Positions 6,888 to 36,884 of a DNA stretch of 42,517 bases are shown here, piece by piece. Origin of the DNA: an uncultured Bacilli bacterium. Lineage in GTDB: Bacteria > Bacillota_I > Bacilli_A > RF39 > UBA660. A program made the position numbers and the translations under genes. The notes beneath the pieces were generated by a model. That model was not told the origin of the DNA, ran no database searches, and saw nothing but the letters and a program-made list of their open reading frames with translations. The stretch is from NCBI GenBank assembly GCA_947630195.1, contig CANRGQ010000001.1, forward strand, positions 1-42,517, written 5' to 3'. Each line of letters begins with the position of its first letter. Positions within the stretch are counted from its first letter, which is position 1.

Positions 6888-6919
6888 TGTTTTTTGTTCA
6901 CGTTTAATAGATTTTGTAA

Positions 6920-7153
6920 TTATTTAACCTCCAAACTATGCATAAATTTTTCAATTAATTTACTAGCCTCTTTATTGTTTGAATCAACATTATTTAAATC
7001 ATAGCAAGATAAAGTAAAGGCTATTAATTGTCTTACATATTCTGATAAAGTAAGTTTATTTTTAAAAGCAATACTTCTTAATTTATCCTTTGATTTTTTA
7101 TCTATATTAACTTTAATGATGGTATCATATAGTTTTAAACGATTACTTGTCAT
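6920..7153 (-). CDS. Small RHH-like hypothetical protein
   Basis: 77 aa. KSKDKLRSIAFKNKLTLSEYVRQLI resembles a ribbon-helix-helix core. Confidence 0.5.
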   Translation of the reverse strand: MTSNRLKLYDTIIKVNIDKKSKDKLRSIAFKNKLTLSEYVRQLIAFTLSCYDLNNVDSNNKEASKLIEKFMHSLEVK

Positions 7154-7493
7154 TAATACCTCGGCTTTCCTTATAATTATTTACTCCAAACTTATCGTAT
7201 TCTTTTAATATTCCCATATTAACAATAGCCACTGGAACTTCAATATTATTGAATGGTGCAAATCCTGTTATTTCTTTTATTATTTTAGCCTTTTTTAATA
7301 TATTAATTAATCCATTATTTACAACATAAGGGTCTAAAAAAACTTTCCCATCATCAAGATAAGCTGTATTAATATTTATGGTGATATCATGGCTTTCACT
7401 TTTATTAATATATTTTAATCGTAGCCTACCATTATGATAATGAGAAACCTTAATGTTATAAATTTTACTATTAAATTTTATTTTTTTCCTAAT
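7143..7493 (-). CDS. DUF4313-like conjugative-element protein with an apparent ATT start
   Basis: Not in the track (no ATG/GTG/TTG start). A 116-codon open frame reads (I)RKKIKFNSKIYNIKVSHYHNGRLRLKYINKSESHDITININTAYLDDGKVFLDPYVVNNGLINILKKAKIIKEITGFAPFNNIEVPVAIVN.... From memory it resembles DUF4313 proteins of ICEs. The ATT lies 7 nt after GGGAGG (7501-7506). Confidence 0.45.
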   Translation of the reverse strand: MRKKIKFNSKIYNIKVSHYHNGRLRLKYINKSESHDITININTAYLDDGKVFLDPYVVNNGLINILKKAKIIKEITGFAPFNNIEVPVAIVNMGILKEYDKFGVNNYKESRGINDK

Positions 7494-7505
7494 ATTAAAA
7501 CCTCC

Positions 7506-8105
7506 CTATATTTTTATCTCTTGTATGGAATTATATTTTTCTTTATTAGTTATGAGTTCAATCATTTTGTCTTTATCTTTATATAGTTTTGATAACTCAT
7601 AGCAAACATCTTCAGCCTGTTTTAATGTTTCGCAATAAGCACAAAATATACTATTTTTAGAATCGTATTTTATTATAGATTTTAAGTCATTAAAATTAGA
7701 ATTTATATAATCTTTAAAAACTCTTTCATAGTCATGACCATTGCCAAGAATCGATTTTTTTGATTTTTTTATATAATCATCTTGGTCTAAACATATGGCA
7801 TAACCATTTTCACAGGCAAATATTTCAAAAGGTTTAAATGATTTGTTATACCAATTATTAAATTTTTGAAACTCTTCCTCTTTAAAAATGATATCATTTA
7901 AAAGTATTATTTTATATTTTTTCTTAAGTTCAAGACCTTTTTCCACAAATTCACAAAATGGTAAATCTAATATTGAGTTCATTTCTTCATAATATTTATC
8001 CACTACTTCTTTAGGACATTTTTCCTCTAAATAATTACTAATTGCATCAAATTTTCTATAACCCATACTACTTCTTACACTTTCATATTCTTGTAAAACA
8101 CTCAT
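7506..8105 (-). CDS. Hypothetical protein
   Basis: Track ORF 7506..8138. I prefer the ATG at 8105 (MSVLQEYESV...), which is preceded by GGGAGG (8114-8119). Confidence 0.6.
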   Translation of the reverse strand: MSVLQEYESVRSSMGYRKFDAISNYLEEKCPKEVVDKYYEEMNSILDLPFCEFVEKGLELKKKYKIILLNDIIFKEEEFQKFNNWYNKSFKPFEIFACENGYAICLDQDDYIKKSKKSILGNGHDYERVFKDYINSNFNDLKSIIKYDSKNSIFCAYCETLKQAEDVCYELSKLYKDKDKMIELITNKEKYNSIQEIKI

Positions 8106-8165
8106 TTTTAAAACCTCCCATCTAAATAAAAGATACAAAAGTTACTAACCTTTGTATCCTTTCCA

Positions 8166-8387
8166 TTATTTTTTTTCGTATGATATTTCTCTAATTAAAA
8201 TATCGGTAATTGTATCTTCTTTTGGATAGCCTCTATCTAGTTCATCTGCAACTTGTCTTATTAATTTTTCTAAAGTATGTCTTACATTCTTTGGAAGTTG
8301 ATTAAAATAAGAACCATAAAGGTCGTGTAGAATTTCATCTAAAACTAGCATAGCTGTACTAACTTCAAAAGTTTTTCTTTTTAGCAT
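8166..8387 (-). CDS. Hypothetical protein
   Basis: 73-aa ORF. GGAGGTG lies 7 nt upstream of the ATG. Confidence 0.55.
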   Translation of the reverse strand: MLKRKTFEVSTAMLVLDEILHDLYGSYFNQLPKNVRHTLEKLIRQVADELDRGYPKEDTITDILIREISYEKK

Positions 8388-8469
8388 TTAATATCACCTC
8401 CTTTTGTGTGATATTAAATCTTAATCAAGTGATATTCCAATCAATTTTAAATCCCTCAAATTGCAATAA

Positions 8470-8500
8470 TAAAAAAGATTACCAATTTCTTGATAATCTT
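8470..8500 (-). terminator. Rho-independent terminator splitting the transfer genes into two units
   Basis: On the minus strand, AAGATTATCAAGAAATTGGTAATCTT (7-bp stem) is followed by TTTTTT. It lies downstream of the PrgI-like gene. Confidence 0.5.
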
Positions 8501-8590
8501 AATTCAAAAAAAAGTGGTGTGTTTTTATAAAACCGATGTACTATTAAAAAATAGCATATTTTTTTAATTATTTCTATTTAAAACAATATA

Positions 8591-8872
8591 TTATTTATAT
8601 TTATACATTTTTTGACGTTTTTGGTATATAACAAATTTCTTTAAAAACATAAAAGTATTACCACCATTAGGTAGTGGAAATAGTAATAAGAAAGTTAATA
8701 TTGGAAAGAATGTGAAAAGAAAAATTTTTAAATAAAAATTACTTGTGAATAGTTGTAATAAATAACCTATACCACACATTAATGCCATTACTAATAATTC
8801 AACAAATCCAAATCCTTTAAATATTTCATTTTTTGTTTTTATATTTTTAGGAATAAGATATATCATGTCCAT
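8591..8872 (-). CDS. PrgI-family (VirB3-like; Tn916 Orf17-like) small membrane protein
   Basis: IYLIPKNIKTKNEIFKGFGFVELLV, two TM helices and the C-terminal FLKKFVIYQKRQKMYKYK match the PrgI/Orf17 layout as I recall it. Confidence 0.6.
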   Translation of the reverse strand: MDMIYLIPKNIKTKNEIFKGFGFVELLVMALMCGIGYLLQLFTSNFYLKIFLFTFFPILTFLLLFPLPNGGNTFMFLKKFVIYQKRQKMYKYK

Positions 8873-10101
8873 TTCCTAACATTATTTTTCATTTTATTTT
8901 GATTAATATAAAGATTCCTCATTGGATTTATTGATGATGAATTTCTGAATCTATTTTCATTACTTTGAGATGGATTATTTTTATTAGAACTAAAGAAATT
9001 GTTATTTGTTTGAGATGCTGAATAATTATTATGGTTTTTAAAATCCATATTAGCTGAGTCCGGCATCTCTGGACTAGATCCCCTAAATTTATTTGCCATA
9101 TTTACAAACCCTCTTCCTAATTTAGTGCCACCATTAACAATAGCTGAGCCTATCGAAACAGCTTTATCTTTGGCATAACTTAAACCTCTTCCAGTTGAAG
9201 ATGCCATTGCTATAATTGATTGAATACCACCAAGCCCTTCCGAAACTCCGGATTGTTGATTTAAAAGAGTTTTAATAATTGTCGGTGTAGTAATAATGAA
9301 TATTAAAGCTCCTAATATAAGAAAGATACTTGCTCCAATACCAGTGTCATTTGATGCATCAGCACATAGGTTTAATAATAGTCCGATACATACAAACTGC
9401 ACAACGGTTACTAGAAAAGCACCCATTGTTGATTTGCACCAAACATTAAATGCTCCTGCTTGGCTAGTAGTTAATGAAGTACAACAAAAAGGTCCGATAA
9501 CTTTATAGAGGGCTATTTCCATTACTCGGGATGCAATCTGAATCCCGACATAAAATAATAAAAAAACCATAATAATTGAAATAACAAATAACATAAAAAA
9601 GTTGAGAGAGTAGACATATACATCACCTAAACCAACAAAACCCCCTGTGGTTTCGTTAATATCTATGGTTTTATAATTAGAAACAAGTTCTTCTATCTTA
9701 TCTTCTTCCATTTCATTATCATATACCATTGCTCTAATGATGGAAGATGAAAGAGAAGTATCCGAATTAGTATCGGTCATACTCGACACTTCCAAAACAG
9801 CATCATTTAATGCAGTTGAAACATTTTGTCCAAATTGAAATAGGGGTGTTATTAAGAACATCATAACTATAGCAATTAAAACTCCTCGATATACTACAAA
9901 CGGACTACTTCTTTCATCATTTTTTATTATATAATTCATAACTAGTTCTATAATGGTTTTTAAAACTAACCAACTACAGGCTACAATTAAAGCTCCACCA
10001 AATATTTTATTAACATACTCATTATCAAAAAATTGATATCGCCATACTTTGTCAATTGTATTAAAGATATTATTTAATGCCCATAGAACACCTTTAGACA
10101 T
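8863..10101 (-). CDS. VirB6/TrbL-like polytopic membrane protein of the T4SS channel
   Basis: 412 aa with multiple TM helices and an N/S-rich C-terminal tail. It lies between the sortase and PrgI-like genes. The ATG at 10101 lacks an SD. An in-frame ATT at 10173 lies 8 nt after GGAGG and may be the true start. Confidence 0.65.
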   Translation of the reverse strand: MSKGVLWALNNIFNTIDKVWRYQFFDNEYVNKIFGGALIVACSWLVLKTIIELVMNYIIKNDERSSPFVVYRGVLIAIVMMFLITPLFQFGQNVSTALNDAVLEVSSMTDTNSDTSLSSSIIRAMVYDNEMEEDKIEELVSNYKTIDINETTGGFVGLGDVYVYSLNFFMLFVISIIMVFLLFYVGIQIASRVMEIALYKVIGPFCCTSLTTSQAGAFNVWCKSTMGAFLVTVVQFVCIGLLLNLCADASNDTGIGASIFLILGALIFIITTPTIIKTLLNQQSGVSEGLGGIQSIIAMASSTGRGLSYAKDKAVSIGSAIVNGGTKLGRGFVNMANKFRGSSPEMPDSANMDFKNHNNYSASQTNNNFFSSNKNNPSQSNENRFRNSSSINPMRNLYINQNKMKNNVRKWT

Positions 10102-10185
10102 ATTCCAAAAAATAGACCTAAAAATGTCATTTATAAAACTTTGTTTAACTGGTTGAATATCTAAAAGAAAAATTTAAAGCACCTC

Positions 10186-10797
10186 CTAAAAAATCTCTTG
10201 ATTGATTAAATTACTGACAATTACTATTTGTTTAGTTCTATCAGTTTGACTACAAGTGGTTAATACTAACATCTTATTATTAGACCTAATAACTTCAATA
10301 TCACCATCTTTTAATACATCATATTTAGAAACAATTTCATAAGTGTACTTAATACCTTTATAATAAACATAAATTAAATCATTAGTATTTAGTTTATATA
10401 AATATTTAAAATAAGACCTTTTTCCATTTCCTGAATGACCAGCAATAGCCAGTAAACTTTTATCTTCATCAGGCATTGTTGAATTTTTCAACACTTCAAT
10501 ATTTTTATTAACATTGTTATTTTTATCACCGAGAGAAAGAAAACCTCTTTTTAAATTAATTTTTGGAATTTCTAAAATACCAATATAATTAATTTCATTA
10601 GAAGTAGTGTTATTATTTTTAATAACTTCTTCATCTTTATGAGCATAAGTAGTAAAAAATTCATTTACTAAATTTTCATTATTTTTATTTGAAATATAAA
10701 TATTTGCATAATAAATTAGAATCCCAAATATAGATAAAAGAATTAAAAGAGAGCCAATTTTAAAAAATCGACTCTTATTTTTTTCTTTTTTCATCAT
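10186..10797 (-). CDS. Sortase (class B/C-like)
   Basis: N-terminal TM anchor, catalytic-His region LAIAGHSG, and the Cys motif LVLTTCS (TLxTC-like). The gene overlaps the end of the adhesin gene. Confidence 0.85.
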   Translation of the reverse strand: MMKKEKNKSRFFKIGSLLILLSIFGILIYYANIYISNKNNENLVNEFFTTYAHKDEEVIKNNNTTSNEINYIGILEIPKINLKRGFLSLGDKNNNVNKNIEVLKNSTMPDEDKSLLAIAGHSGNGKRSYFKYLYKLNTNDLIYVYYKGIKYTYEIVSKYDVLKDGDIEVIRSNNKMLVLTTCSQTDRTKQIVIVSNLINQEIF

Positions 10798-13700
10798 ATA
10801 TCAAAAACCCAATACCTGCGAATATACAAACTAAAGCAATTATATCAATTATTGTTGATTCATTGGCTGAAGTTTTAGGAACAGGTATTTTTTCATTAGT
10901 CATGTCACTCTTTACTACAATTCCATCCTCTAAAATTTCAAAGAACATTTTCTCGGGATTTAAAATGTAGCCATCCGGTGCTTGTTTTTCTAAAATATAG
11001 TATTTTCCATATTTTAAATTCTCAATAATTACTTTGCCATTTTCATCAGTTAAACCACTAAAAATTAGCTCATCTTTATCAGTGTAAACTTCAATCAATG
11101 TATTAGGCAGTGGATTACCGGTTGAGATGTCCGTTTTTGTAAATTCTAAAGTACCAGTAATTAGTTTGTTTTCCATATTGGCTTTAACAATCTCACCATT
11201 TCTTCTAATGCTAAAATACATCTTTTCCGTATTTAAAACATAACCCTCTGGTGCTTCTTTTTCTAAAATATAATAGCTTCCATATCTTAATTTCTTAATA
11301 AAAATCTTGCCATATTCATCAGTTCTTCCTCTAAAAATTAATTTATCATTAATAGTATAAATTTCAATTAAGGTATTAGGAAGTGGCTCACCAGTTGAGA
11401 TGTCGGTTTTAGTAAATTCTAATTTTCCAGTAATAGGAACATCTTTCATTTCTGATTTAATAATTTCGCCATCTTCTTTTATCTCAAAATACATTCTATC
11501 TTTGTTGATAAGATATCCTCTAGGAGCTTCTTTTTCCAAGAAATAATACTTACCTGTTTTTAAGTTCTCGATAATAATTTTTCCGTATTTATCAGTTCGA
11601 CCACTAAATATTAATTCATTATCAATAGTATAAACTTCAATTAAAGTATTAGGTAAAGGCTTACCTGTCGAAATATCAACTTTTGTTATTTCAATCTTAC
11701 CTTTTTTTAGATAATTTTTTAAAGTGATTTCTTGTTCAATGATTGGTGTATATTGGTCTCGATATTCTAAATTGAACTCATATTCTTTAGTATCTAAAAC
11801 ATAACCATCAATAGTTTCAATTTCTTTTAAAATATACTTGCCAAGTTTTAAATCCAAAAATTCAGCATAGCCATCTTTATTTGTTATAGCTGTTGCAATC
11901 AATTTCCCTTTTTCATCATATAGACCAAATTTAATTCCTTTTAAAGCAATTTCTTCATAAGTGAAACTGCCATCTTCAATAACAAATTCTTCGCCAGTTT
12001 TATGAATAACTATTTTGCCACGAACTTCTTGATTTTCAAATTCGACTTCTAATATTACTCCTAAATCATCATCAAAAGTGAATTCAGCATCTTTTTTAAC
12101 TTCAAATTTTAATGGCTCTCTATTCCACAAGTATCCATCAATGACTTGGTCAATTTCTTCTAATTGATAATGACCAACTTCTAATCCGTATGGCGTATAT
12201 AAAATGCCTTCTTCATTTGTTTTAAATACACATAATTTTTCATTAGTAGGGTAACTAACCATTTGACAAACATAATCGCCAGTATCTAAATTTTTTATCT
12301 TAAATTTTATACCGGCAATAGGCAATTCTTCTTTTGTAACGGAATCTATTTTTGTAACTTTAATTCGTGCCTTTATTGGTCCATTATTGATAACTTTATC
12401 AACATCTTTATTTTTAATATCGATTTCAAAGCATCTTGCATCTTCTGAATCAAGAGCTCCTTTAGTTTGACAAACACTATATCTTCCATAAGGTAAAGTT
12501 ATTTTTGCTCGACCTTTATCATCAGTAGTAATAGTGCCTACCTTTTTATTTTTACTAATTAATGTTATATCAAATACTGCATTTGGCTCGGTTTCTATTT
12601 CACCAGTTGTGCCATCACTTTTGACTTTAAATAAATGAAAATCAAATTTATAAACTTCTTCTTTAGAAGTTACAGAAACAACTTGGTCGTGTTCTTCAAT
12701 AGTTACATTATAAGTTTTGGTGTCTATTTTATAACCGACATTTGGTGTTTTTTCTCTTACGGTGTAATTTCCAACTTCAAGAGCTCTAGATTTGGCTTTA
12801 CAATTACTACCAATTGTTAAAGTATCAACTTCTTCGCCGTCTTCATTATAAATGCCATAAATAGCTCCGACTAATTTAGCATCTCCTTGTGCCTCACAAC
12901 TATTGTTTTCAGAGTCAACTTTGGTAATCTCGATATAACCCTCACTTGCTTCACCAGAAACTCTTGCATAAATGGGGTCTACATTACCATTTGTTATTAG
13001 GTTTTGAGAATCGGCTAGAGTTAAAAATAAAACACTATGGTCATAAGAGCCTCGACCATTTTTAACTAATGTAACACTTACTTCGCCACCATTTTCAGTA
13101 GTTATTGATAGTTTATTTCCATTAATTTGGGCTGTACAATTGTTACAACTATCAACCGAGAATTGACTTAAAACATTGTTGGTATCTTCCAATTCTTGCG
13201 TTTCGCCTTTCTTTAGTTTTACAGATGTTCCATTAAAACTAGGAGTTACTGAATGATTATCTACAAGTGCTTGGATTTCGTTCATAGCATTTGTAACAGT
13301 AGCAGGATCGTTGACTTTAGAACAGCCATCAGTACATAATGTATTAGTAAATACTGTTGGCTCAATAGTTCTATAAATAAGCATTTGAGTTGCGACAATA
13401 TAAATGCTATTAGTATGAGTTCCATAACCATATCCATAATGAGCATATAATTGCATTTTTCTTAATTGCTCTAGTGTTAATTGATTAGTTGGCTTTTCTT
13501 GAGAATTATTTACTAAATCTAAAATGCTCGTATCATCATAATTATAAACATTATAAGTTTTAGAACGATTCATTACTTCGCCCGGAGCAATACAATATGC
13601 TTGAGCTCCCACACTTACTCCACTTGTTATTTTAGTATTAAGAATTTGCCCATATCTATTAAAATGACTTGAACTTTCCATATGGGCATGATAGTAATCG

Positions 13701-13804
13701 CCGACATTTTTGGATGTTACTTTAGCTGTATCGGCTTTAACTATATTTACATCTAATAGTAATAATAATAAAATTATGATAAAAATAAAATTTTTTCCTT
13801 TCAT
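10775..13804 (-). CDS. Cell-wall-anchored adhesin: putative thioester N-domain plus multiple Cna-B/SpaA-type repeats
   Basis: Track ORF 10775..13846. I prefer the ATG at 13804 (MKGKNFIFIIILLLLLL..., GGAGG 13813-13817). AYCIAPGE and VATQMLIY resemble the Cys and TQxA(I/V)W motifs of thioester domains. There are many G-x-I/L-x-I/F-T-K-x-D ... G-x-Y-x-L-x-E-x-x-A-P-x-G-Y repeats. The C-terminus has VPKTS, then a hydrophobic helix, then KRKK. Confidence 0.85.
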   Translation of the reverse strand: MKGKNFIFIIILLLLLLDVNIVKADTAKVTSKNVGDYYHAHMESSSHFNRYGQILNTKITSGVSVGAQAYCIAPGEVMNRSKTYNVYNYDDTSILDLVNNSQEKPTNQLTLEQLRKMQLYAHYGYGYGTHTNSIYIVATQMLIYRTIEPTVFTNTLCTDGCSKVNDPATVTNAMNEIQALVDNHSVTPSFNGTSVKLKKGETQELEDTNNVLSQFSVDSCNNCTAQINGNKLSITTENGGEVSVTLVKNGRGSYDHSVLFLTLADSQNLITNGNVDPIYARVSGEASEGYIEITKVDSENNSCEAQGDAKLVGAIYGIYNEDGEEVDTLTIGSNCKAKSRALEVGNYTVREKTPNVGYKIDTKTYNVTIEEHDQVVSVTSKEEVYKFDFHLFKVKSDGTTGEIETEPNAVFDITLISKNKKVGTITTDDKGRAKITLPYGRYSVCQTKGALDSEDARCFEIDIKNKDVDKVINNGPIKARIKVTKIDSVTKEELPIAGIKFKIKNLDTGDYVCQMVSYPTNEKLCVFKTNEEGILYTPYGLEVGHYQLEEIDQVIDGYLWNREPLKFEVKKDAEFTFDDDLGVILEVEFENQEVRGKIVIHKTGEEFVIEDGSFTYEEIALKGIKFGLYDEKGKLIATAITNKDGYAEFLDLKLGKYILKEIETIDGYVLDTKEYEFNLEYRDQYTPIIEQEITLKNYLKKGKIEITKVDISTGKPLPNTLIEVYTIDNELIFSGRTDKYGKIIIENLKTGKYYFLEKEAPRGYLINKDRMYFEIKEDGEIIKSEMKDVPITGKLEFTKTDISTGEPLPNTLIEIYTINDKLIFRGRTDEYGKIFIKKLRYGSYYILEKEAPEGYVLNTEKMYFSIRRNGEIVKANMENKLITGTLEFTKTDISTGNPLPNTLIEVYTDKDELIFSGLTDENGKVIIENLKYGKYYILEKQAPDGYILNPEKMFFEILEDGIVVKSDMTNEKIPVPKTSANESTIIDIIALVCIFAGIGFLIYDEKRKK
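10883..11701 (-). repeat. Three tandem 273-nt (91-aa) near-identical Cna-B-type coding repeats inside the adhesin gene
   Basis: The units begin GKIEITKVDISTGKPLPNTLIEVYT..., GKLEFTKTDISTGEPLPNTLIEIYT... and GTLEFTKTDISTGNPLPNTLIEVYT.... Coordinates were derived by counting back from the stop. Confidence 0.8.
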
Positions 13805-13871
13805 TATAAACACCTCCATTTTGTCATAAAAAAAATAAGTTTTCACTTATTTTTAAAATTATTGTTACTTA

Positions 13872-14594
13872 TTAATTTTTTCCGGTACAAGCATACCCAA
13901 GACTTTTTAAATATTGAATAGCACTTATACCATTTCCATTTTCAAATGAAACACTATTTGGAAGATAAATCATGTCGTTATCTTCACAAAGTTTTTTGGG
14001 AACATATAAACTAATTGAATAAATCTTTGCCTCACAAGTATCGTCAGAGTATTCTCTAGGAACTGGTGAAATGAAAAAGCCATATAAATAATTCCTAGCA
14101 ATTCTATCGCCGTCATTATAAGCCTCTTCATAACTATTGTAAAATCTTAATGTATCATAAGTTTTAGACAAGTTGTTTAGCCATTTTACATATCCCTCAT
14201 CATTGTTATTGCAAGTATGCTTTTCTTTAACTTCATTATTAGATGGTTGCTTATTATCCGAAACATTATTATCATTTTGTTTATTATTGGTAGCTGTATC
14301 TTTGCTGTTTGAAGTTTGCTTTTTATCTTCTTTTGAAGTTTTATCTTGATTGTCATTAGAAATAGGCTCTTCAACTTCAGGACTACTGTTGTTCTCAACA
14401 TCACTAGATTCGTTATCATCATTATTGTTGTTATTTTCATATTGCAAGTTATCATTAATTTTTTGCGTATCATTAGGATTTGGATTATTAGACTCTTTGT
14501 TATTCAAAACAACAAAGTAGGTAATACAAGTTCCCAACAATATAATTAAAATAATACTTATTAGTATAATTAATATTTTTTTGCTTTTTTTCAT
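13872..14594 (-). CDS. Membrane-anchored hypothetical protein with N/D/S-rich linker and Cys-containing C-domain
   Basis: Track ORF 13872..14618. I prefer the ATG at 14594 (MKKSKKILIILISIILIILL), which is preceded by AAGGAAGG. Confidence 0.6.
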   Translation of the reverse strand: MKKSKKILIILISIILIILLGTCITYFVVLNNKESNNPNPNDTQKINDNLQYENNNNNDDNESSDVENNSSPEVEEPISNDNQDKTSKEDKKQTSNSKDTATNNKQNDNNVSDNKQPSNNEVKEKHTCNNNDEGYVKWLNNLSKTYDTLRFYNSYEEAYNDGDRIARNYLYGFFISPVPREYSDDTCEAKIYSISLYVPKKLCEDNDMIYLPNSVSFENGNGISAIQYLKSLGYACTGKN

Positions 14595-14652
14595 ACCATA
14601 CCTTCCTTTAACTCGCATTGTACGACAATGTTATAAAAAAATCAAATTTTTT

Positions 14653-14937
14653 TTAATAATCTTTTTCTAAATATTGCTTTAAATAGTTTAAATCATTAAT
14701 TAAATCGTGTAAATTACACCGAAGTTCAATTCTTTTTTGATTATTATTAAATTTGTCACAAAAGTATTTTAAAATGGTTTCTATAAAAATAGGATTATTT
14801 ATATTTTCTTTTAAAATGTCTTTAGCATCATTTTTACTTAAATCATTTTTTTCGAAAATATTAAAATAGTCCAACATATCAAAAATGCGATTTAATAAAT
14901 TTTTGCTTTTTATAAAGTAATAATAATTCTTTTGCAT
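14653..14937 (-). CDS. Hypothetical protein
   Basis: 94-aa ORF tightly packed behind the upstream gene (1-nt gap). Confidence 0.5.
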   Translation of the reverse strand: MQKNYYYFIKSKNLLNRIFDMLDYFNIFEKNDLSKNDAKDILKENINNPIFIETILKYFCDKFNNNQKRIELRCNLHDLINDLNYLKQYLEKDY

Positions 14938-14938
14938 T

Positions 14939-15331
14939 TTATATTTTTATATCCTTATTTATATATGTGGCATCACTTACTATCTCTTCGATATCACAAT
15001 CACTATAATCAACTGCACTATAAAAATCAAGATTTTCATTTAAATACTTTTGAGTTTCATTAACAATTGATTTAATATCAGTTATATTACAAATATCAAT
15101 TAAATAATTATTAATGAATATATTTACTCGATAAACAAAGTCACCAACTTTAGAATAAAATAAATCGTTATCTAAAACAAAGTTATTTCTAAATTTACTA
15201 TAAAAGGTATTATGTAGATTTTTATCAAATATTACTTGCTTAATTAAATTACAATTTTTAAGGGGAATATTTTCTACTTTTTCTTGATGTAGAATCTCTT
15301 TAATAATTTTATCAAAACTTTTTCTTTTCAT
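14939..15331 (-). CDS. Hypothetical protein
   Basis: 130-aa ORF. Its ATG overlaps the stop (TAATG) of the unannotated small membrane ORF upstream. Confidence 0.5.
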   Translation of the reverse strand: MKRKSFDKIIKEILHQEKVENIPLKNCNLIKQVIFDKNLHNTFYSKFRNNFVLDNDLFYSKVGDFVYRVNIFINNYLIDICNITDIKSIVNETQKYLNENLDFYSAVDYSDCDIEEIVSDATYINKDIKI

Positions 15332-15594
15332 TATTTAAAATAGCCAAAAATCCAACTAACAAATTCAGCAGTAATTAAAGAACATACTCCTGCAATTATA
15401 GTCGATTTTATCTTTCTATCATAACTGGCTTTATGATTATCGTCAGTAGCTGTCATTTTTAAGACACAATCTTTAGCCACAAAGAAAGCAGTAGCTCCAA
15501 TAACAAAAAGTCTTAAATAATTTGTAGCATCCTGAATAAGACTTAAAACATCTTGTAATATGCTATCTATAATTATTCCCCAAAATTGTATTAT
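15331..15594 (-). CDS. Possible small two-TM membrane protein (VirB2/Maff2-like topology) without a canonical start
   Basis: Not in the track. An 88-codon open frame reads ...ILQDVLSLIQDATNYLRLFVIGATAFFVAKDCVLKMTATDDNHKASYDRKIKSTIIAGVCSLITAEFVSWIFGYFK. Its stop is coupled to the next gene. Only ATA/ATT codons are available near the 5' end, and AAGGAGG (15622-15628) lies further upstream. Confidence 0.3.
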   Translation of the reverse strand: MIQFWGIIIDSILQDVLSLIQDATNYLRLFVIGATAFFVAKDCVLKMTATDDNHKASYDRKIKSTIIAGVCSLITAEFVSWIFGYFK

Positions 15595-15632
15595 TTTTTA
15601 GTTTGTTTTGAATATTTAATACCTCCTTAATT

Positions 15633-16460
15633 TTAATATTCTAGTGATATTTTTAGCTGTACACCATTTTCTAATCTCTTTTTAATGATTTCACAATATT
15701 TGCTAGATAATTCAATTCCTATCCATTTTCTATTTAATACTTCACAGCCTAGTAGAGTAGAGCCACTGCCACTTGTAAAATCCAATACTATTTCATTTTC
15801 TTTAGTATAAGTTGAAATTAGATATTCCATAAGATTAATAGGTTTTTGCGTAGGATGATACAATATAGCCTCTCTTGGAAACTGAATTATATTTCTAGGG
15901 TAGTTACTAAATTCTTGGATGCTTTCAAATTTTTTGTCTGACTTTTTTTCTCGTAAATAGTTAACACTTTTTTTAATTGTTTTTATATTAACTGATATTA
16001 ATCCCTGTGGGTAATAGTTAATATGTTGTTTTGCACTAGAGTTTGCTTTGGCTTTAGAAAAAACCATAATATCTTCATAGCATCTTAAGGGTTGATATTT
16101 AGCTGTTTGAAAATTAGTAACTTGGGTTTTAATCCATTTCCAATCATAGCGATATAAGTTTAAATTACTCATCCTTAATTTACTAGAAAAAGGCTCATTA
16201 CCAAACAAAACAATAGCACCATTATCTTTAATGAGTTTTAATAACTTATCCCACATTTCATCAAACGGAATAATGTTATCCCAAGAGAAGTTAGTGACGG
16301 CATATGGTGGGTCAGTTATTATGGCATCCACTTTAACTCCATCTTTTATTAGTTCATCCATTACTTTTAAACAATCACCATTATATAAAACACCATTGTT
16401 GGTTGAATAGTATGGTTTACAAGTTATTTTATCACCTCCAATCCATTTATAAAAAAACAA
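15633..16460 (-). CDS. Beta-class N6-adenine/N4-cytosine DNA methyltransferase (orphan)
   Basis: DAIITDPPY (motif IV) precedes FTSGSGSTLLG (motif I, FxGxG), which is the beta-class order. No restriction endonuclease gene lies beside it. The track's TTG start has no SD. An in-frame ATA at 16427 lies 7 nt after GGAGG. Confidence 0.85.
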   Translation of the reverse strand: MFFYKWIGGDKITCKPYYSTNNGVLYNGDCLKVMDELIKDGVKVDAIITDPPYAVTNFSWDNIIPFDEMWDKLLKLIKDNGAIVLFGNEPFSSKLRMSNLNLYRYDWKWIKTQVTNFQTAKYQPLRCYEDIMVFSKAKANSSAKQHINYYPQGLISVNIKTIKKSVNYLREKKSDKKFESIQEFSNYPRNIIQFPREAILYHPTQKPINLMEYLISTYTKENEIVLDFTSGSGSTLLGCEVLNRKWIGIELSSKYCEIIKKRLENGVQLKISLEY

Positions 16461-16937
16461 TTAATTCGTTGAACTAATTGTCTTTTTGCGTTTATATACT
16501 GCTTTATCATCTTTTTGAATTAAATTGAAATGTAATGCTACTTTAACATAGCAACTTCTTTTAATTTGCCTTGTCGTTTTTAAGGATTTTGCAATCGCAT
16601 CAGCCATTTCTTCATCAGTTAATCTTTGCTCGATACCATATTTAAATATAGATTTTTCATCATCGGTTAAAGTTGCTTTAAAATTTTTAACTTTAATATT
16701 AAATTTTTTAATCTCATTTAATAGCTCTTCTCGTTTAATAAGAACTGATTGAGTGGGGTTTGAAACAGAATGGGTATCTGATATGACAACTTCTTTAATA
16801 GTTGATGTTGCTTTGCCAAAGTAATTTTTAGCGAGAAATACTTTATAATTGTATTCATCCCATTTTTTGTAAATTCTTTTTGAAAGTTCTCTTAAATAAA
16901 ACTTATTAACATATTCCTTTGCGAGTAAAACTCTCAT
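16461..16937 (-). CDS. ArpU / sigma-70 region-4-like transcriptional regulator
   Basis: The C-terminal LTDDEKSIFKYGIEQRLTDEEMADAIAKSLKTTRQIKRSCYVKV resembles the region-4 HTH of ArpU/Orf7-like regulators of phages and ICEs. Confidence 0.5.
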   Translation of the reverse strand: MRVLLAKEYVNKFYLRELSKRIYKKWDEYNYKVFLAKNYFGKATSTIKEVVISDTHSVSNPTQSVLIKREELLNEIKKFNIKVKNFKATLTDDEKSIFKYGIEQRLTDEEMADAIAKSLKTTRQIKRSCYVKVALHFNLIQKDDKAVYKRKKTISSTN

Positions 16938-20051: not shown

Positions 20052-20073
20052 AAAAAAAACTAGCAAGTGCTAG
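20052..20073 (-). terminator. Rho-independent terminator after the LysR gene
   Basis: On the minus strand, CTAGCACTTGCTAG (6-bp stem, includes the TAG stop) is followed by eight T. Confidence 0.6.
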
Positions 20074-20963
20074 TCTATATCTTTAACATTAAACTCTTTT
20101 AACAACTCTTTAGCTGATGGCGAAATGTTTTCTCTTATAAAGGCAATAGATATATCTTTTTTAAGGTCTATATCAAAAGTTAAGATATCTTTATCTTTTA
20201 GAGTGAATCTTTTTGGAAGTAATCCAAAACCTAATCCGCTTTTAACATATTCTAAAATTGAATCGTAACTATTTACCTCTAATGATAAATTCATTTCTAT
20301 ATTTTGTTTTTTTAATAAGGAATTAAAATCGTATCTTTCTTTCTTGGCTGTAATAGGTAATATTAAAGGTAAGTTATCCAAATCTTTTAAACTATTAATA
20401 TTAAGGTTATAATGTTTTTTAGAATAAGCGATACAAAAAGTATCGACATTAATATTTTGCACTTCTATTTTTTTAGAAGTTTGGTCAACATCAATAATGG
20501 TGTCTATAATAAAGTCCATTGAAAATTTAGAAAGTTTATCATATAGGTCATTAGTGGAAGAATTAACAAATTTAATAACAACATTTGGGTATTTGGATTT
20601 AAACTTTTTAATCTTATCTATAACAATATCGTTTTCAACATCTTTGGAAACACCAATCGTTAACTTACCGTTATTTAAATCTTTATTTTGAAGAAAATTT
20701 TTCTCTGTAATATATAATAAATTGTATGCTTTCTCAAATCCCTCAAATAATTCTTTTCCATCCTCGGTCAATTCAAATTTTTGGGAACTAATATTAAATA
20801 GTTTTGTTCCATAGGCTTTCTCTAAATTACTGATGTTTCTTGAAATATTAGACCTATCAATGTTTAATTTTTTAGTGGCTTCAGTAATACTTTTAGATTG
20901 ACCTACTACGACAAAAGTCCTTATGAAGTTTAAATTAATGGTGGGTATTTGTATTTGCTTCAT
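20070..20963 (-). CDS. LysR-family transcriptional regulator
   Basis: 297 aa. The N-terminal winged HTH reads LNFIRTFVVVGQSKSITEATKKLNIDRSNISRNISNLEKAYGTKLF. The C-terminal substrate-binding domain has typical length. Confidence 0.9.
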   Translation of the reverse strand: MKQIQIPTINLNFIRTFVVVGQSKSITEATKKLNIDRSNISRNISNLEKAYGTKLFNISSQKFELTEDGKELFEGFEKAYNLLYITEKNFLQNKDLNNGKLTIGVSKDVENDIVIDKIKKFKSKYPNVVIKFVNSSTNDLYDKLSKFSMDFIIDTIIDVDQTSKKIEVQNINVDTFCIAYSKKHYNLNINSLKDLDNLPLILPITAKKERYDFNSLLKKQNIEMNLSLEVNSYDSILEYVKSGLGFGLLPKRFTLKDKDILTFDIDLKKDISIAFIRENISPSAKELLKEFNVKDID

Positions 20964-21247
20964 TATAAGCCCTCCTCAAATTACTAAATATGATAAATCA
21001 GAGAGCATAAAAAGTCAATAATAATTTATGCAAAAATGCAAAAAAGATATGTTTAAATTGTAAAAATGCAACATAACTATTAAAAAAGATTAAAAGAGTG
21101 TAAATAAATTATTTAATGCTTTTATCGATATGTTCTTTTTGAATTAATATACATCTTTTGATTTTTCTATGGAAATTACAACAAAAAATGGTTTTTTTAT
21201 TGGCTTAGATTATGGCAAATTATAGTAATTGTAGCATTGCTGAGTTA

Positions 21248-21278
21248 TTGACAAAAAGCATACGGGGGGGGGTATAAT
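21248..21278 (+). promoter_or_regulatory. Sigma-A-type promoter: TTGACA, 19-nt spacer, TATAAT
   Basis: Perfect -35 (21248-21253) and perfect -10 (21273-21278), about 90 nt upstream of the 21369 ATG. The spacer is 2 nt longer than the optimum. Confidence 0.6.
21264..21272 (+). repeat. G9 homopolymer abutting the -10 box
   Basis: Read directly as tacGGGGGGGGGtataat. It is the longest G/C run I could find by eye in this AT-rich window; the others are 5 nt or shorter. Confidence 0.9.
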
Positions 21279-21368
21279 AACAATAGAGATAGAGTTTCAT
21301 ATATAATCATAGGCATTATATGAGGATTTTCTGTCAAAAAAATTTTAGAAAGAGAGGAGGAAAAATTA

Positions 21369-22055
21369 ATGGAAAAGAAAAACACAATGTTACTAACAGT
21401 AATCGCAGTAGCCACTTTATTAGTAGCTGTAGTGGGAGCAACATTTGCATATTTTAGTTTAAGTACAACTGGAGGTTCAAATACGACTGCAACAATTAGT
21501 ACTCCTAAAGTTGGTCAAGCATTAATTAGTACAAAGCAAGAATCTTTACAATTAACATTAACAGCACAAGATATGGATAAAAGTAAAGCAGGCACAACAT
21601 ATTATGCTTCAACAGATGGAGCAACAAAGGATAGTGCTACTCCAATTCCAATAGCTGAAGTAACATTATCAGAAGCACAAGATACAGCAAAATATTCATG
21701 TACTACAACTGTCAAAGTGACTGCTGATAATACTGAAGAAGATACTAACATGTTAAGTAGCTTGGAAAAAGGATGGGCTAAATTAACACTAGGTGGAAGT
21801 GTAACTGCAGATATAGATATTGCTGATTTAAAAGACACTAATACTCGAGAAGAAACAGGAACATATGAATTAGAAGTTAGTAGTGCCGGTTCAGTAACTA
21901 AAGATATTTTAAGCGCAGTATTATCATTTACAAATACAGCTGATACTGAAGAAGTACCTAATAGTGGTAACCAAAATGCAGTAGCTGGTAAGACATTAAA
22001 GGTTAAAGTAGAAGTTAAAGAAGGAACATGTACTTTAGCATCAGATGGTGAATAA
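21369..22055 (+). CDS. Secreted T/S-rich protein with SipW-cognate (TasA/camelysin-type) signal peptide, paralog 1
   Basis: In MEKKNTMLLTVIAVATLLVAVVGATFAYFS, the G-x-T-F-A-Y-F-S motif matches the TasA/CalY signal class. AGAGGAGG lies before the ATG. Confidence 0.7.
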   Translation: MEKKNTMLLTVIAVATLLVAVVGATFAYFSLSTTGGSNTTATISTPKVGQALISTKQESLQLTLTAQDMDKSKAGTTYYASTDGATKDSATPIPIAEVTLSEAQDTAKYSCTTTVKVTADNTEEDTNMLSSLEKGWAKLTLGGSVTADIDIADLKDTNTREETGTYELEVSSAGSVTKDILSAVLSFTNTADTEEVPNSGNQNAVAGKTLKVKVEVKEGTCTLASDGE

Positions 22056-22112
22056 TTTTTTATCTAGATAAAAAATTTTATAATACGAAATAATAGAAAA
22101 GAGGTGTAATAA

Positions 22113-22841
22113 ATGGAAAAGAAAAATACAATGTTACTAACAGTAATCGCAGTAGCAACATTATTAGTAGCTGTTGTGGGAGCAACATTTGCGTTCTTTA
22201 GTTTACAAGTGTCTGGAAATAGTACAACAGATGCTACTGTTACAGCTGCTAAAGTTGGTACAGCAACAATAAGTACTGTGGAAGAAAATAAAACTTTAAA
22301 ATTAAGTTTAACAGCTGAAGACATGGCTAAATATACAGATGATAAAGTGTATTATGCTTCAGTAGATGGTACTGCACCCGGAGATTCAACTCCGATAAAA
22401 ATTGCTAATATAGCTTATTCAGGTGGCGAAGCAAATACAACTTACAAGTGTCCCGTTCAAGTAAACGTATCAGTTAGCGGAACTATGCAAGAACATTTAC
22501 AAGAAGGATGGACTCAATTAATACTTCAAGGTGATGCAGTAAATGTAAGTGCTAGTCAATCTCAAAGTAGTGTTGCTGGAACTACTATACAAGATGGTAA
22601 TTTGCAAGTTGATTTGAAAACAGCATTAGCAGTAGGACCACAACAAGGTAGTAAAAAAGTAACTTTTAAAGGTAATGTTACAGTAACTGGTCCAGAAATG
22701 GAAGCTAAAAATATCCTTAGTGCATCATTATCATTAACAAATAAAAATAATGTTGACCAAAGTGCGATTGCCAATAGTGATTTAATTGTTACAATCACTG
22801 TTGAACCAGATGGTGCTTGTACTTTACAAACGACTGATTAG
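22113..22841 (+). CDS. Secreted protein with SipW-cognate (TasA/camelysin-type) signal peptide, paralog 2
   Basis: The first 27 aa are identical to paralog 1 (..VVGATFAFFS). Shared islands include LTAxDMxK, YYASxDG, GWxxLxLxG, ILSAxLSxTN and a C-terminal CTL. Confidence 0.7.
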   Translation: MEKKNTMLLTVIAVATLLVAVVGATFAFFSLQVSGNSTTDATVTAAKVGTATISTVEENKTLKLSLTAEDMAKYTDDKVYYASVDGTAPGDSTPIKIANIAYSGGEANTTYKCPVQVNVSVSGTMQEHLQEGWTQLILQGDAVNVSASQSQSSVAGTTIQDGNLQVDLKTALAVGPQQGSKKVTFKGNVTVTGPEMEAKNILSASLSLTNKNNVDQSAIANSDLIVTITVEPDGACTLQTTD

Positions 22842-23153
22842 TAATAAAAAAAACATATCAAAGATATAAACATTAACCTTTAATATATAGATGTTTATAT
22901 CTTAAAAAAAGAGAAAAAAATTCTTCCTCTTTTAAACATTTTTTAGAAATATTATCCTCAAACTTTTTTTAAAAATGTTTATATCATGAGATTCCCTAGA
23001 AATATTTTTTCTCTTTTTTTAATTTATAAATGCTAATATTTTTTAATAAAATAGAACAATTTATGATATTTTTTTGTTAAATTATTTTATATTATTTTGT
23101 ATTAATTCGTCAGTAATCCGTCAGTAAATATTAAATTTATAGTTTTTGGCAAT

Positions 23154-23176
23154 AAAAAAATGCCTAAAAATAGGCA
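23154..23176 (-). terminator. Hairpin plus T-run downstream of the tRNA remnant
   Basis: On the minus strand, TGCCTATTTTTAGGCA is followed by TTTTTTT. Confidence 0.5.
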
Positions 23177-23206
23177 AATTGTACTTTATATTTTAGTTGC
23201 AGGGCG

Positions 23207-23249
23207 TGTGTGTTGCAGACCCACGCCTTAGCCACTTGGCTACGGCTCC
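23207..23249 (-). pseudogene. tRNA 5'-half remnant (acceptor 5' strand, D-arm, anticodon arm with GCA = Cys); no T-arm or 3' acceptor
   Basis: The minus strand reads GGAGCCG TA GCC AAGTGGCTAA GGC G TGGGT CTGCAAC ACACA. The sequence then diverges (CGCCCTGCAACTAAAATAT...), with no GTTCRAnYC T-loop and no CGGCTCC partner. Confidence 0.55.
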
Positions 23250-23388
23250 ATCAAATAACATTAATATTTTACCTTAAAATAATAGGCATGTCAATTAAGT
23301 TATTAAATTTTATGTGGGTTAGATTTTAATATGAATATTAACTTGATTAATAGATTAAAGATAAGTATAATCATTTAAGAGGTATTTT

Positions 23389-23931
23389 ATGAAAGTATAT
23401 ATAGTAAGACATGGAGAGACAGATTGGAATAAAGAGGGAAGAAGACAAGGGTCTATAGATATTCCTTTAAATGAAAAGGGAATAGAACAAGCAAATATCT
23501 TAAAAGATAAATTAAAAGATATAAAGTTTGATTTATGTATATCATCTCCTTTAAAAAGAGCATACAAGACAGCAGAAATTATCTATGGAAATGATAATAT
23601 TATAACAAATGATTTATTAAAAGAAAGATATTTAGGAGAATATGAAGGAACCACTATTGGGAATAGTAAATTTGATTTCTATTATTATATGAATTATAAA
23701 ATAAATGCTAGTGATCATGGGGTAGAACCTTTTCAAGATTTACTTAAAAGATGTCATATATTTTTAGAGGATTTAAAAAGAAATTATAGGGATTATGAAA
23801 ATATTTTAATTGTTACCCATGGTTTTTGTGGTAAATGTTTATATTATAATTTAGTAGGATATAATGAAGATACAGATTTTAGTGGTTTTAAATTAGAAAA
23901 TTGTGAATATTTTGCTTATGTTATAAAATAA
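23389..23931 (+). CDS. Histidine phosphatase (phosphoglycerate mutase superfamily)
   Basis: The N-terminal VRHGETDWN motif and a later VTHG are the catalytic His signatures. Confidence 0.85.
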   Translation: MKVYIVRHGETDWNKEGRRQGSIDIPLNEKGIEQANILKDKLKDIKFDLCISSPLKRAYKTAEIIYGNDNIITNDLLKERYLGEYEGTTIGNSKFDFYYYMNYKINASDHGVEPFQDLLKRCHIFLEDLKRNYRDYENILIVTHGFCGKCLYYNLVGYNEDTDFSGFKLENCEYFAYVIK

Positions 23932-29981: not shown

Positions 29982-31187
29982 ATGATTGAAAGAAATGAGT
30001 ATTTAGATGTCTTAAAAAGATTTAAGGATAAAGAAATAATCAAGGTAATAACTGGTATTAGAAGATGTGGAAAATCTACGCTTTTAGAATTATATAAAGA
30101 ATATTTACTTAATAATGGTGTTAAAAAAGACCAAATAATAAGTATCAATTTAGAAGACTTAAAATATAATTTTCTAACTGATTATATGTCTTTATATAAT
30201 TATATAAATGATAATTTAAAAGATAATAAGAAAAATTATGTTTTTATCGATGAAGTTCAAAAGATAAATGAATTTCAAAAAGCGGTGGATAGTTTATATA
30301 TAAAGAAAAATGTTGATTTATATATAACAGGCTCTAATGCTAATTTGTTATCTAGTGAACTTGCCACTCTTTTATCCGGAAGATATATCGAAGTCAAAAT
30401 GTTACCTTTATCATTTAAAGAATATAAAAGTGTTTATAAAGATTTGTCTAATGAAGAATTATATCGTAAATATATTTCTTTTGGTTCCCTTCCTTTTACT
30501 ACTTCTTTAGAAACAGAAGATGATGTAAATATCTATTTAAGTAGTTTATATAATGACATTATCATAAAAGATGTTATGACAAGGAAAAAAATAACTGATG
30601 AAACAATGCTTCGAAGTGTGGCAAATTTTGCGATGGATAATATTGGTAATTTAGTATCAATAAATAATATTGCGAGTACGCTTGCTAGTGATGGCCGAGA
30701 TATTAATGTTCGCACTATTGAAAGATATTTGGAAGGATTTACGGAAAGTTACTTTCTTTATAAAACTACTAGATATGATATCAAGGGTAAACTTTATTTA
30801 AAAACTGGTGAAAAATATTATGTAACTGATTTAGGACTTAGATACTTTATCTTAGGACGTAAATTAGGAGATTATGGTCATGTATTAGAAAATGTTGTTT
30901 ACTTAGAACTTTTAAGAAGAGGCTATGATGTCTATATAGGTAAGTTTGATAATTATGAAGTTGACTTTGTAGCCCTTAATAAAGATGGAAGGGTATATAT
31001 CCAAGTTACAGATACTTTAAAAGGCAAAGATGAAAATGATTCTAAAGTTTTAGATAGAGAATTAAGATCTTTAAAAAAGATAAATGATAATTATGAAAAA
31101 ATAATCTTAACATCAGATAACATACCTTTATCTAATGAAGATGGTATAAAAGTCCAAAATGTTTATGAATGGTTATTAGATAAGTAA
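29982..31187 (+). CDS. AAA-type ATPase with DUF4143-like C-terminal domain
   Basis: The P-loop ITGIRRCGKSTLL, Walker B VFIDEVQ, the ~400-aa length and the C-terminal VDFV motif match this widespread ATPase family as I recall it. Confidence 0.75.
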   Translation: MIERNEYLDVLKRFKDKEIIKVITGIRRCGKSTLLELYKEYLLNNGVKKDQIISINLEDLKYNFLTDYMSLYNYINDNLKDNKKNYVFIDEVQKINEFQKAVDSLYIKKNVDLYITGSNANLLSSELATLLSGRYIEVKMLPLSFKEYKSVYKDLSNEELYRKYISFGSLPFTTSLETEDDVNIYLSSLYNDIIIKDVMTRKKITDETMLRSVANFAMDNIGNLVSINNIASTLASDGRDINVRTIERYLEGFTESYFLYKTTRYDIKGKLYLKTGEKYYVTDLGLRYFILGRKLGDYGHVLENVVYLELLRRGYDVYIGKFDNYEVDFVALNKDGRVYIQVTDTLKGKDENDSKVLDRELRSLKKINDNYEKIILTSDNIPLSNEDGIKVQNVYEWLLDK

Positions 31188-31823: not shown

Positions 31824-32474
31824 ATGATAAAAGAAAAGTTGAAAAAAATTAATAATAAAGAATTAATATTACTAGTGATAATAGTATTTATTTTTATACT
31901 TTTGTTGTTATTTAAATTAATTATAAAAAGCACTCATGCTTATTATAATTATGAAATGGCTCCGGTACCAATATTTACGGGGAAAGTTGGAGATTTTGTT
32001 GGAGGTAAACTTGAACCTAGTCCTTATGAAGGTGATGCTGACATAAGCACTATTGTGTATGCTAATGAAGGGGAAGGATATCGTATTATAGATACCGTGC
32101 CTGTATTTGGCTTTACTTTGAATGAAAAGAAGACTAAATGTAAACCAGAAGCACTTCCATTTAGTGATATAGATATAACAGATGGAACAATAACTTATGA
32201 TGTAACAGAAACAACACCAAATCAAGTATCTTGTTACGTTGTATATGATTTATCTTCTGATGTCGTAGTTTATGCTTATAAACAAGATAGTTTAGGAACT
32301 AAAACATATAATAATAAAACTTATACATTAGTAAGTGAAATACCAACCAATTATAAGTATTCAGGTTTTACTTGTACAGACAAAGGTACTGAAATAAACT
32401 ATGATACCTCAACAGGAATAAGTTTCACAACTGATAAACCAAATATCTGTTATGTATATTTTGATGCTCAATAA
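31824..32474 (+). CDS. Secreted protein with TasA-like signal motif and two Cys-bracketed modules
   Basis: The N-terminal TM helix is followed by KSTHAYYNYE (compare G-T-F-A-Y-F-S-D). Modules: TKCKPEALPFSDIDITDGTITYDVTETTPNQVSCYVVYD and FTCTDKGTEINYDTSTGISFTTDKPNICYVYFD. Confidence 0.6.
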   Translation: MIKEKLKKINNKELILLVIIVFIFILLLLFKLIIKSTHAYYNYEMAPVPIFTGKVGDFVGGKLEPSPYEGDADISTIVYANEGEGYRIIDTVPVFGFTLNEKKTKCKPEALPFSDIDITDGTITYDVTETTPNQVSCYVVYDLSSDVVVYAYKQDSLGTKTYNNKTYTLVSEIPTNYKYSGFTCTDKGTEINYDTSTGISFTTDKPNICYVYFDAQ

Positions 32475-35274: not shown

Positions 35275-35374
35275 TTCTAGTGCAATTTATATATTGCCAA
35301 GTTAAGTGGGAGGGAAATGCGGATTTGCCCAAGACCACTTACACGAAAAAATTTATTTTATAGGAGGTGTTTTC

Positions 35375-35971: not shown

Positions 35972-36027
35972 TATAATAATGATAATAAAAAATCCGCTAA
36001 TTAACCACAGTTAGGAGGGAAGAAGTT

Positions 36028-36726: not shown

Positions 36727-36749
36727 GAAGTAGTATATTATAATAAATT

Positions 36750-36884
36750 TTAAGAAAAGAAACCGAAGACAGTAGGGAAGGAAACTTTTAATAATCCTAC
36801 CGAGGGGAAATTTAAATAACTTATGTTTTTTGAAGCTTCCCTTAACGCGGAAGCTTTTCTTGAAAAATAAAATAAGGAGGAAAT
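36750..36884 (+). promoter_or_regulatory. rplJ 5' leader (L10-leader-like attenuator region)
   Basis: A structured non-coding gap before rplJ. The hairpin GAAGCTTCC-CTTAACGC-GGAAGCTTT (36832-36857) runs into a T-rich tail, and a GTAGG/CCTAC pairing lies upstream. Position and form fit the Firmicute L10 leader, but no covariance model was run. Confidence 0.45.

Follow-up and report, generated by a model that had tools for sequence, protein, structure and literature searches.

A nine-guanine tract in the promoter spacer of a secreted-protein gene pair from an uncultured gut Bacilli bacterium: a candidate slipped-strand switch

Organization of the locus

The window, the whole stretch of DNA that was analysed, is 42,517 nt long (contig CANRGQ010000001.1 of assembly GCA_947630195.1), derives from an uncultured Bacilli bacterium of the rabbit gut and has a G+C content of 27.2%. 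Within it, a 405-nt gap separates a divergent LysR-family gene from a 228-aa open reading frame, gene 1, and holds two perfect promoter hexamers with a run of nine Gs between them (Table 1). Gene 2, a paralogue of gene 1, begins after a further gap of 57 nt that contains no comparable promoter, and we infer that the two genes are co-transcribed.

Table 1 Features of the promoter region and gene pair (positions are those of the window)
Feature	Position	Strand	Remarks
LysR-family gene	20070-20963	-	divergent from gene 1
Conserved block directly 5' of the -35 box	21224-21247	+	left end of shared cassette; small dyad AGCA-N-TGCT at 21233-21241
-35 hexamer TTGACA	21248-21253	+	perfect consensus; same in 5/5 haplotypes
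Spacer, 5' half, AAAAGCATAC	21254-21263	+	10 nt; positions 4-6 variable between lineages, CATAC invariant
G9 homopolymer GGGGGGGGG	21264-21272	+	3' half of spacer; abuts -10 box
-10 hexamer TATAAT	21273-21278	+	perfect consensus; same in 5/5 haplotypes
Putative 5' UTR	21285-21368	+	predicted transcription start near 21285
Hairpin in 5' UTR	21288-21335		predicted fold -12.8 kcal/mol, z-score -1.9 (modest)
Second TATAAT	21302-21307		lacks a -35 partner
Ribosome-binding site GGAGG	21356-21360		strong
Gene 1, 228 aa, predicted secreted	21369-22055	+	N-terminus MEKKNTMLLTVIAVATLLVAVVGATFAYFS; all-beta jelly-roll-like body
Gene 2, 242 aa, paralogue	22113-22841	+	41% identical to gene 1, same N-terminus
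Conserved 3' non-coding block	22842-23036	+	right end of cassette; ~195 nt; 97-98% identity across lineages
Hairpin in 3' block	22861-22903		13 bp

The gene products

Neither protein of the pair matched Pfam or NCBIfam, a family profile returned 0 matches at E ≤10 in a PDB sequence search, and exact-protein look-ups for both found nothing on record. The family to which gene 1 belongs comprises at least 1639 proteins of gut 'Bacilli' MAGs, some of them from human gut, that carry no Pfam domain or annotation. An AlphaFold model of the gene 1 product (pLDDT 84) places a jelly-roll-like all-beta domain behind a disordered/hydrophobic N-terminus. Foldseek gave weak matches only, to TNF-like and viral jelly rolls, Pgp3, the archaeal cannulae 9h8b and the Pyrobaculum bundling pili 7ueg (E-values near 0.01 for 7ueg and 9h8b), and TasA was absent from the top 50.

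The preliminary description had called the two proteins TasA-like. In favour of this label are an N-terminal KK-hydrophobic-GATFAYFS segment that resembles the signal region of TasA and CalY, a modelled body that is all-beta and jelly-roll-like, and PF12389 (camelysin/TasA, Peptidase_M73) as the commonest weak Pfam match, found in 11 of 67 relatives but always below threshold (best E-value 0.0033). A C-terminal N..QN..AGK.L.V motif also aligns with QNKYQGNSIKLQF of TasA, although at a negligible hhalign probability (0.7%), the QN..AGK part falling on the QNKYQG region of an approximate TasA sequence. Against the label, all family matches remained sub-threshold, both window proteins lacked a Pfam or NCBIfam match, TasA lay outside the Foldseek top 50, and no signal-peptidase domain or sipW was seen in the window ORFs scanned, unlike the situation for TasA and camelysin. 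As a label, 'TasA-like' is a reasonable lead, short of a finding, and denotes a weak remote resemblance.

Between lineages, dN/dS reached 0.3-0.8 in the mature parts of the proteins versus 0-0.37 in the N-terminal 45 codons. The elevated values, together with the signal-like N-terminus, are as expected of proteins that would be exposed.

At other loci (L009, L012-L015), AAA_14/DUF4143 ATPase genes repeatedly stand between paralogues of the secreted-protein family. The window has one such gene 7 kb downstream (29982-31187); behind it lies a 216-aa ORF (31824-32474) whose N-terminus (...STHAYYN) is similarly signal-like.

The promoter and its G tract

A G9 tract abutting the -10 box, in a 19-nt spacer between TTGACA and TATAAT, was the core of the preliminary description and is confirmed on the sequence, the spacer consisting of N10 plus G9. 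So is its statement that no other G/C homopolymer in the window exceeds 5 nt, the longest others being two C5 and two G5 runs. The tract was said to be unlikely to reflect compositional noise, and dinucleotide-preserving shuffles agree: a run of G8 or longer is expected 0.08 times per window, a figure itself inflated by the GG content of the tract. The same shuffles predict 0.28 perfect TTGACA-N15-21-TATAAT pairs versus the two found in the window. The second pair (36716-36744) has a 17-nt spacer and lies 141 nt upstream of rplJ. The hexamers in front of gene 1 thus match those of a ribosomal-protein gene in quality, yet are 2 nt out of register.

Hexamer pairs with at least 10 of 12 matches were counted window-wide and peak at a 17-nt spacer (32 pairs, versus ~15 at other spacings), so that sigma-A spacing in this organism is of the ordinary kind. 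The 17-nt optimum on which the earlier account relied therefore holds locally: 16-17 nt is the rule in this organism and, as described below, in the gene family, and 19 nt is abnormal. A scan of the 405-nt intergenic region, limited to spacers of 16-18 nt and for that reason not listing the 19-nt pair itself, found no plus-strand candidate with 9 or more of 12 matches. Given this result and the conserved hexamers, the promoter that serves both genes is very probably this TTGACA/TATAAT pair, with the tract setting its spacing, as had been proposed.

Other readings of the region were considered and rejected. Alternative -35 boxes at 17 or 18 nt (GACAAA, TGACAA) match at 2 of 6 positions. By eye, GGGTAT has no GTTTAA at 12-15 nt as a SigB-type promoter would, and the TGAAAC/CGTA elements of an ECF-type reading are on the minus strand 29 nt apart.

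Promoters of related genes

Ten candidate promoters of related genes combine a perfect TTGACA with an overall match of 11/12 and lie ~85-115 nt upstream of the ATG. Their spacer is 17 nt in seven, 16 nt in two and 20 nt in one; none has 18 or 19 nt. For the one scored at 20 nt (locus L026), choosing a weaker -10 box would give 17 nt.

We surveyed 80 distant loci of the family (240 kb) from human and other gut metagenomes. They contain no G/C run of 7 or more (the longest is 6) and none of 6 or more in the 200 nt that precede the gene, and this absence rules out the tract as a family trait. All other family loci fetched likewise lack a G/C run in the promoter spacer; runs near family genes elsewhere are only G5-G7 and occur in purine-rich upstream or ribosome-binding regions of sister lineages. 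Orthologues at 71% and 62% identity (L009/L010, L012-L015 and L024) have upstream regions unrelated to that of the window. Given the 17-nt family norm and the missing tract in distant loci, the tract is a clade-specific addition that shifts a normally 17-nt promoter to 19 nt.

Two of these loci carry homopolymers of other kinds. L009 has TTGACA-17-TACAAT at 3908-3936 with an A10 run in the spacer and no G9 (A/T runs in the window are at most 8), and the L012 paralogues have G7 runs (712-718 and 3990-3996) in the ribosome-binding region, within strongly purine-rich upstream sequence.

Tract length in related assemblies

Contigs with the closest homologues came from rabbit ('Lapin') gut metagenomes and from MAGs of 'uncultured Bacilli bacterium'. 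The rabbit-gut data sets concerned are ERZ27249129, ERZ27249352, ERZ27249088/097/317 and ERZ27059787/666, together with the MAGs GCA_947589435 and GCA_947627805. The resulting census covers ten independent assemblies and five promoter haplotypes, with protein identities to the window of 100, 92, 80, 78 and 77%. G9 was found in nine of the ten assemblies and four of the five haplotypes, namely in the window itself, the 92% lineage (L001 and L002), the 80% lineage (L003, L004 and L005) and the 77% lineage (L006, L007 and L008). The exception is the 78% lineage (L011, MAG GCA_947627805), where G8 gives an 18-nt spacer. Tract lengths were identical in all five within-lineage comparisons between samples, and no allele longer than G9 occurred among the ten assemblies. 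Comparison of the tract in related genomes, which the preliminary description had suggested, has therefore yielded both an allele shorter by one G and a length that is nearly invariant.

The lone G8 comes from one MAG contig and is one of ~5 indels in 145 aligned promoter/UTR columns, including A7 to A8; as one of several ordinary indels it is by itself no proof of hypermutation. Pairwise coding dS between haplotypes is 0.16-0.5, a divergence over which free slippage would have had time to diversify the tract lengths, so that the length observed should reflect a mutation-selection equilibrium rather than shared ancestry. The purity of the tract was considered as a sign of special selection and rejected: substitutions affect 17 of the 145 columns, the chance of nine clean columns is ~0.3, and the tract stands out only against the synonymous rate and not against the promoter/UTR background.

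The L002 contig starts 5 nt before the tract. We rejected this break as a sign of tract heterogeneity, since it coincides with an A/G strain difference directly before CATAC (window versus L001 haplotypes) and is probably explained by a strain-level branch in the assembly graph. Several assemblies break around the locus (L002, L019, L020, L022 and L023), with contig ends at the spacer, within gene 1 or just before gene 2, a fragmentation that fits co-occurring strains with common promoter and signal-peptide segments.

Further copies were sought with the conserved 5' UTR as a DNA pattern, which gave 0 matches in JGI metagenomes, 0 in viral contigs and, in GTDB species genomes, only the two MAGs already obtained. 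Look-ups of the gene 2 alleles P0028 and P0018 returned no further contig that included the promoter.

Conservation and a portable cassette

Upstream of ~21224 the haplotypes are unrelated. From that point as far as the signal-peptide codons they are conserved, with the -35 box, CATAC, G run, -10 box and 5' UTR all included. The 5' half of the spacer occurs as AAAAGCATAC, AAAAACATAC, AATTACATAC and AACGCCATAC, all of 10 nt, with positions 4-6 reading AAG, AAA, TTA or CGC across lineages and the length unchanged; in the upstream dyad the arms are fixed and the central base is T or A. Identity across lineages is 94-97% in promoter plus UTR, where lineages differ by 3-13%, and falls to 52-90%, in mosaic patches, in the mature-protein coding region. 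Promoter and UTR, including the tract, have thus evolved several-fold more slowly than synonymous sites and are functional and under constraint. No credible Rfam match was found on 20900-23400.

Homology is lost again beyond ~23036. The flanking genes differ between lineages: LysR and radical-SAM genes border the cassette in the window and in L001, a DNA methylase and a MutH-like gene do so in L003 and L006, and L003 and L011 have in addition a 113-aa gene directly upstream. This points to a portable unit of ~1.8 kb. The two cassette ends (~21224 and ~23036) bear an inverted 7-mer, TAGCATT / AATGCTA, and the conserved ends with this 7-mer suggest a portable 1.8-kb expression cassette.

Discussion

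We tentatively read the locus as a sigma-A promoter that would be tunable by slippage and attenuated in its sequenced state. In this scheme the G tract would belong genuinely to the spacer of a sigma-A-type consensus promoter and be kept there by selection, and this promoter would drive an operon of two genes whose products are secreted beta-jelly-roll proteins that evolve fast. With G9 the spacer is 2 nt over the norm of the organism and the family, from which an attenuated or OFF promoter is predicted. Slippage of the G run during replication would bring the spacer to 18 nt, as seen in one MAG, or to 17 nt, and so raise transcription, and the locus would act as a slipped-strand volume control or phase switch. 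That slippage would alter expression follows from established promoter biochemistry. We infer all three links of the scheme, that is, the use of these hexamers, the weakness of a 19-nt spacer and slippage frequent enough in populations. An evolved, frequently switching contingency locus is plausible, and we put it forward with some reserve. The slipped-strand phase switch of the preliminary description thus gains from the promoter anatomy, the 17-nt norm and the one G8 allele, and loses from G9 in nine of ten assemblies and from equal lengths in all five within-lineage comparisons.

The design has well-studied counterparts. In Mycoplasma hyorhinis, the vlp genes have poly-A promoter-spacer tracts, one per paralogue, and their products are lipoproteins. 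The present locus resembles them in its spacer homopolymer, in a conserved block of promoter, 5' UTR and signal sequence before divergent bodies of putative surface proteins, and in coming from an AT-rich member of the wider Bacilli/Mollicutes radiation. It differs in that the tract is poly-G, a single tract would serve a two-gene operon, and the signal is of the TasA type rather than that of a lipoprotein. A homopolymer of at least ~8 nt between recognisable hexamers, the mark of porA, opc, fetA and vlp-type promoters, is present here as TTGACA-N10-G9-TATAAT.

As in Neisseria porA (poly-G), opc and fetA/frpB (poly-C), a G/C homopolymer between the -35 and -10 boxes sets the spacing (PMC5320596). 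In the neisserial porA, opc and fetA genes tract length sets the transcription of a surface-protein gene, switching has been measured and lengths vary widely, the fetA promoter tract spanning C10-C14 (PMC5320596); here, in contrast, there are nine G9 and one G8, and the host is a low-GC Gram-positive-type gut commensal, not a proteobacterial pathogen. Cutibacterium acnes PPA1880 offers a Gram-positive parallel in which a G run in the putative promoter spacer alters the spacing: tracts of G11, G13 and G15 occur, with spacings of 18, 20 or 23 nt, and correlate with strain-specific secretion of a putative adhesin (PMC3224659). Unlike that tract, which belongs to a high-GC actinobacterium, has 11-15 G and is polymorphic among three strains, the window tract is shorter and nearly invariant.

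Near-invariance need not be fatal to a slippage-tunable promoter. In the AT-rich genome of Campylobacter jejuni, where G/C tracts likewise stand out, the modal length of poly-G/C tracts is also 9, G8 mostly gains a G and G11 mostly loses one (PMC3401435), and this bias makes a narrow G8/G9 spread compatible with a true contingency tract. C. jejuni differs in having about 29 tracts per genome, mostly in coding regions, whereas here one tract is known and it lies in a promoter. In gonococci, a tract that was either A8 or A9 in six strains was taken as a candidate for transcriptional phase variation (PMC5320596). On the other side, if the OFF state were selected, G10 and longer alleles would be equally OFF, yet none was seen, and the invariant CATAC with its ATAC...GTAT dyad hints that sequence, and not length alone, matters to the role of the tract.

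In a second explanation, a serious rival that we rate somewhat lower, the promoter is regulated and its length locked. The 19-nt state would be functional and held by selection, and the promoter would stay weak until a regulator or DNA supercoiling, not mutation, acted on it; the G run and ATAC/GTAT would form a fixed operator or structural element, and G8 would be a rare mutant or a consensus error. G9 in four of five haplotypes and in all replicate samples despite dS of 0.16-0.5 argues for it, as does a spacer whose length is kept while its positions 4-6 change. ATAC (21260-21263) is the inverted complement of GTAT (21272-21275), and the two flank the tract as ATAC-N8-GTAT (N7 in the G8 allele) beside the invariant CATAC. 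The arms of this dyad are only 4 bp, however, and lie off-centre in the spacer, overlapping the -10 box. Proteins could also bind the conserved AGCA-N-TGCT (21233-21241) and an inverted copy of the -35 region (21328-21340). Finally, a static model leaves the presence of a pure homopolymer at 27% GC unexplained.

Candidate regulators for a locked promoter bear on both sides. A 19-nt spacer, which keeps a promoter inactive until remodelling, is typical of MerR-type activated promoters, indeed their hallmark, and the locus shares with them good hexamers and a spacing within their 19-20 nt range. Unlike them it has no long dyad operator centred in the spacer, and no MerR-family gene occurs in the window or the related loci. 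A MerR-type operator was rejected for want of an extended dyad centred in the spacer. Neighbouring genes encode LysR, radical-SAM, histidine-phosphatase and XRE-type HTH proteins. The divergent LysR-family gene of the window and L001 would suit a regulated promoter, but it is missing beside the cassette in three of five lineages; L003, L006 and L011 are flanked by DNA-methylase, MutH-like or small unassigned genes, and LysR control is unlikely. A stricter version, in which the run is locked at nine and forms with ATAC/GTAT a fixed operator or DNA-structural element needing a DNA-distorting activator, a MerR-like logic without a MerR protein carried on the ~1.8-kb portable cassette, seems to us improbable.

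Two side observations concern possible binding sites. In the G8 allele the dyad reads ATAC-N7-GTAT, with a spacing like that of the classical LysR T-N11-A box. The -35 region TTATTGACAAAAA (21245-21257) has its imperfect inverted copy, TTTCTGTCAAAAA, ~70 nt downstream in the 5' UTR; both are present in all haplotypes, and TTATTGACAAAAA and TTTCTGTCAAAAA could be paired operator sites.

A third explanation, which we regard as unlikely, is that the hexamer pair is not the promoter in use or that its spacing is irrelevant because polymerase relies mainly on the -10 box. Expression would in that case not depend on the G run, which could be a neutral relic or have another role, e.g. in a longer transcript. 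In favour of this, a second TATAAT lies downstream, and -35 boxes contribute little in some reduced-genome relatives (Mollicutes). Against it stand the lack of a -35 partner for that TATAAT and of any other plus-strand candidate in the gap at 9/12 or better with a spacer of 16-18 nt, the conservation of TTGACA at 16-17 nt in related-gene promoters of many lineages, the 17-nt peak of the window spacers, and a tract that is uninterrupted across dS of 0.16-0.5.

A sequencing or assembly artefact (poly-G from two-colour chemistry or a homopolymer miscall) is scarcely credible: homopolymers are error-prone and L002 begins next to the tract, but that break is accounted for by the strain-level branch, and both flanks agree in ten independent assemblies from different samples, which effectively settles the existence of the tract, though not the G8 call of the single MAG.

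Promoter-spacer homopolymer contingency loci are, to our knowledge, well documented in Neisseria, Mycoplasma and Campylobacter and hardly so in walled gut commensals of low GC content that only metagenomes have revealed. Whether the promoter is slippage-tunable or length-locked, the locus adds an example to a known design and does not represent a system of a new kind. If the switch is true, the same mutational volume control would operate in uncultured gut Bacilli on a secreted-protein family that is abundant and evolves fast, and G-tract length would be a simple marker readable directly from metagenomic reads. If the tract is length-locked, it would be an unusual case of a promoter homopolymer kept for a non-mutational role.

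Additional features of the window

Beside the cassette, a G+C-rich stretch on the minus strand (23195-23270) resembles the 5' part of a tRNA (GGAGCCGTAGCCAAGTGGCTAAGGCG...) and may be a tRNA fragment or the remnant of an attachment site; ARAGORN predicted no tRNA anywhere in the window. Positions 700-16500 carry the gene set of a Gram-positive conjugative element, comprising a MobL relaxase, a NikA-like protein, a VirB4/TraG-type ATPase, TrbL, PrgI, an M23 peptidase, a sortase, a 1023-aa SpaA/thioester-domain adhesin and an N6/N4 DNA methylase. In the region 35306-41113, an rplK-rplA-rplJ-rplL operon is not followed by rpoB/rpoC. Its place is taken by an ORF of 491 aa that has no Pfam match (37824-39299) and one of 127 aa whose hydrophobic N-terminus is pilin-like (39677-40060), with rpsL-rpsG beyond them.
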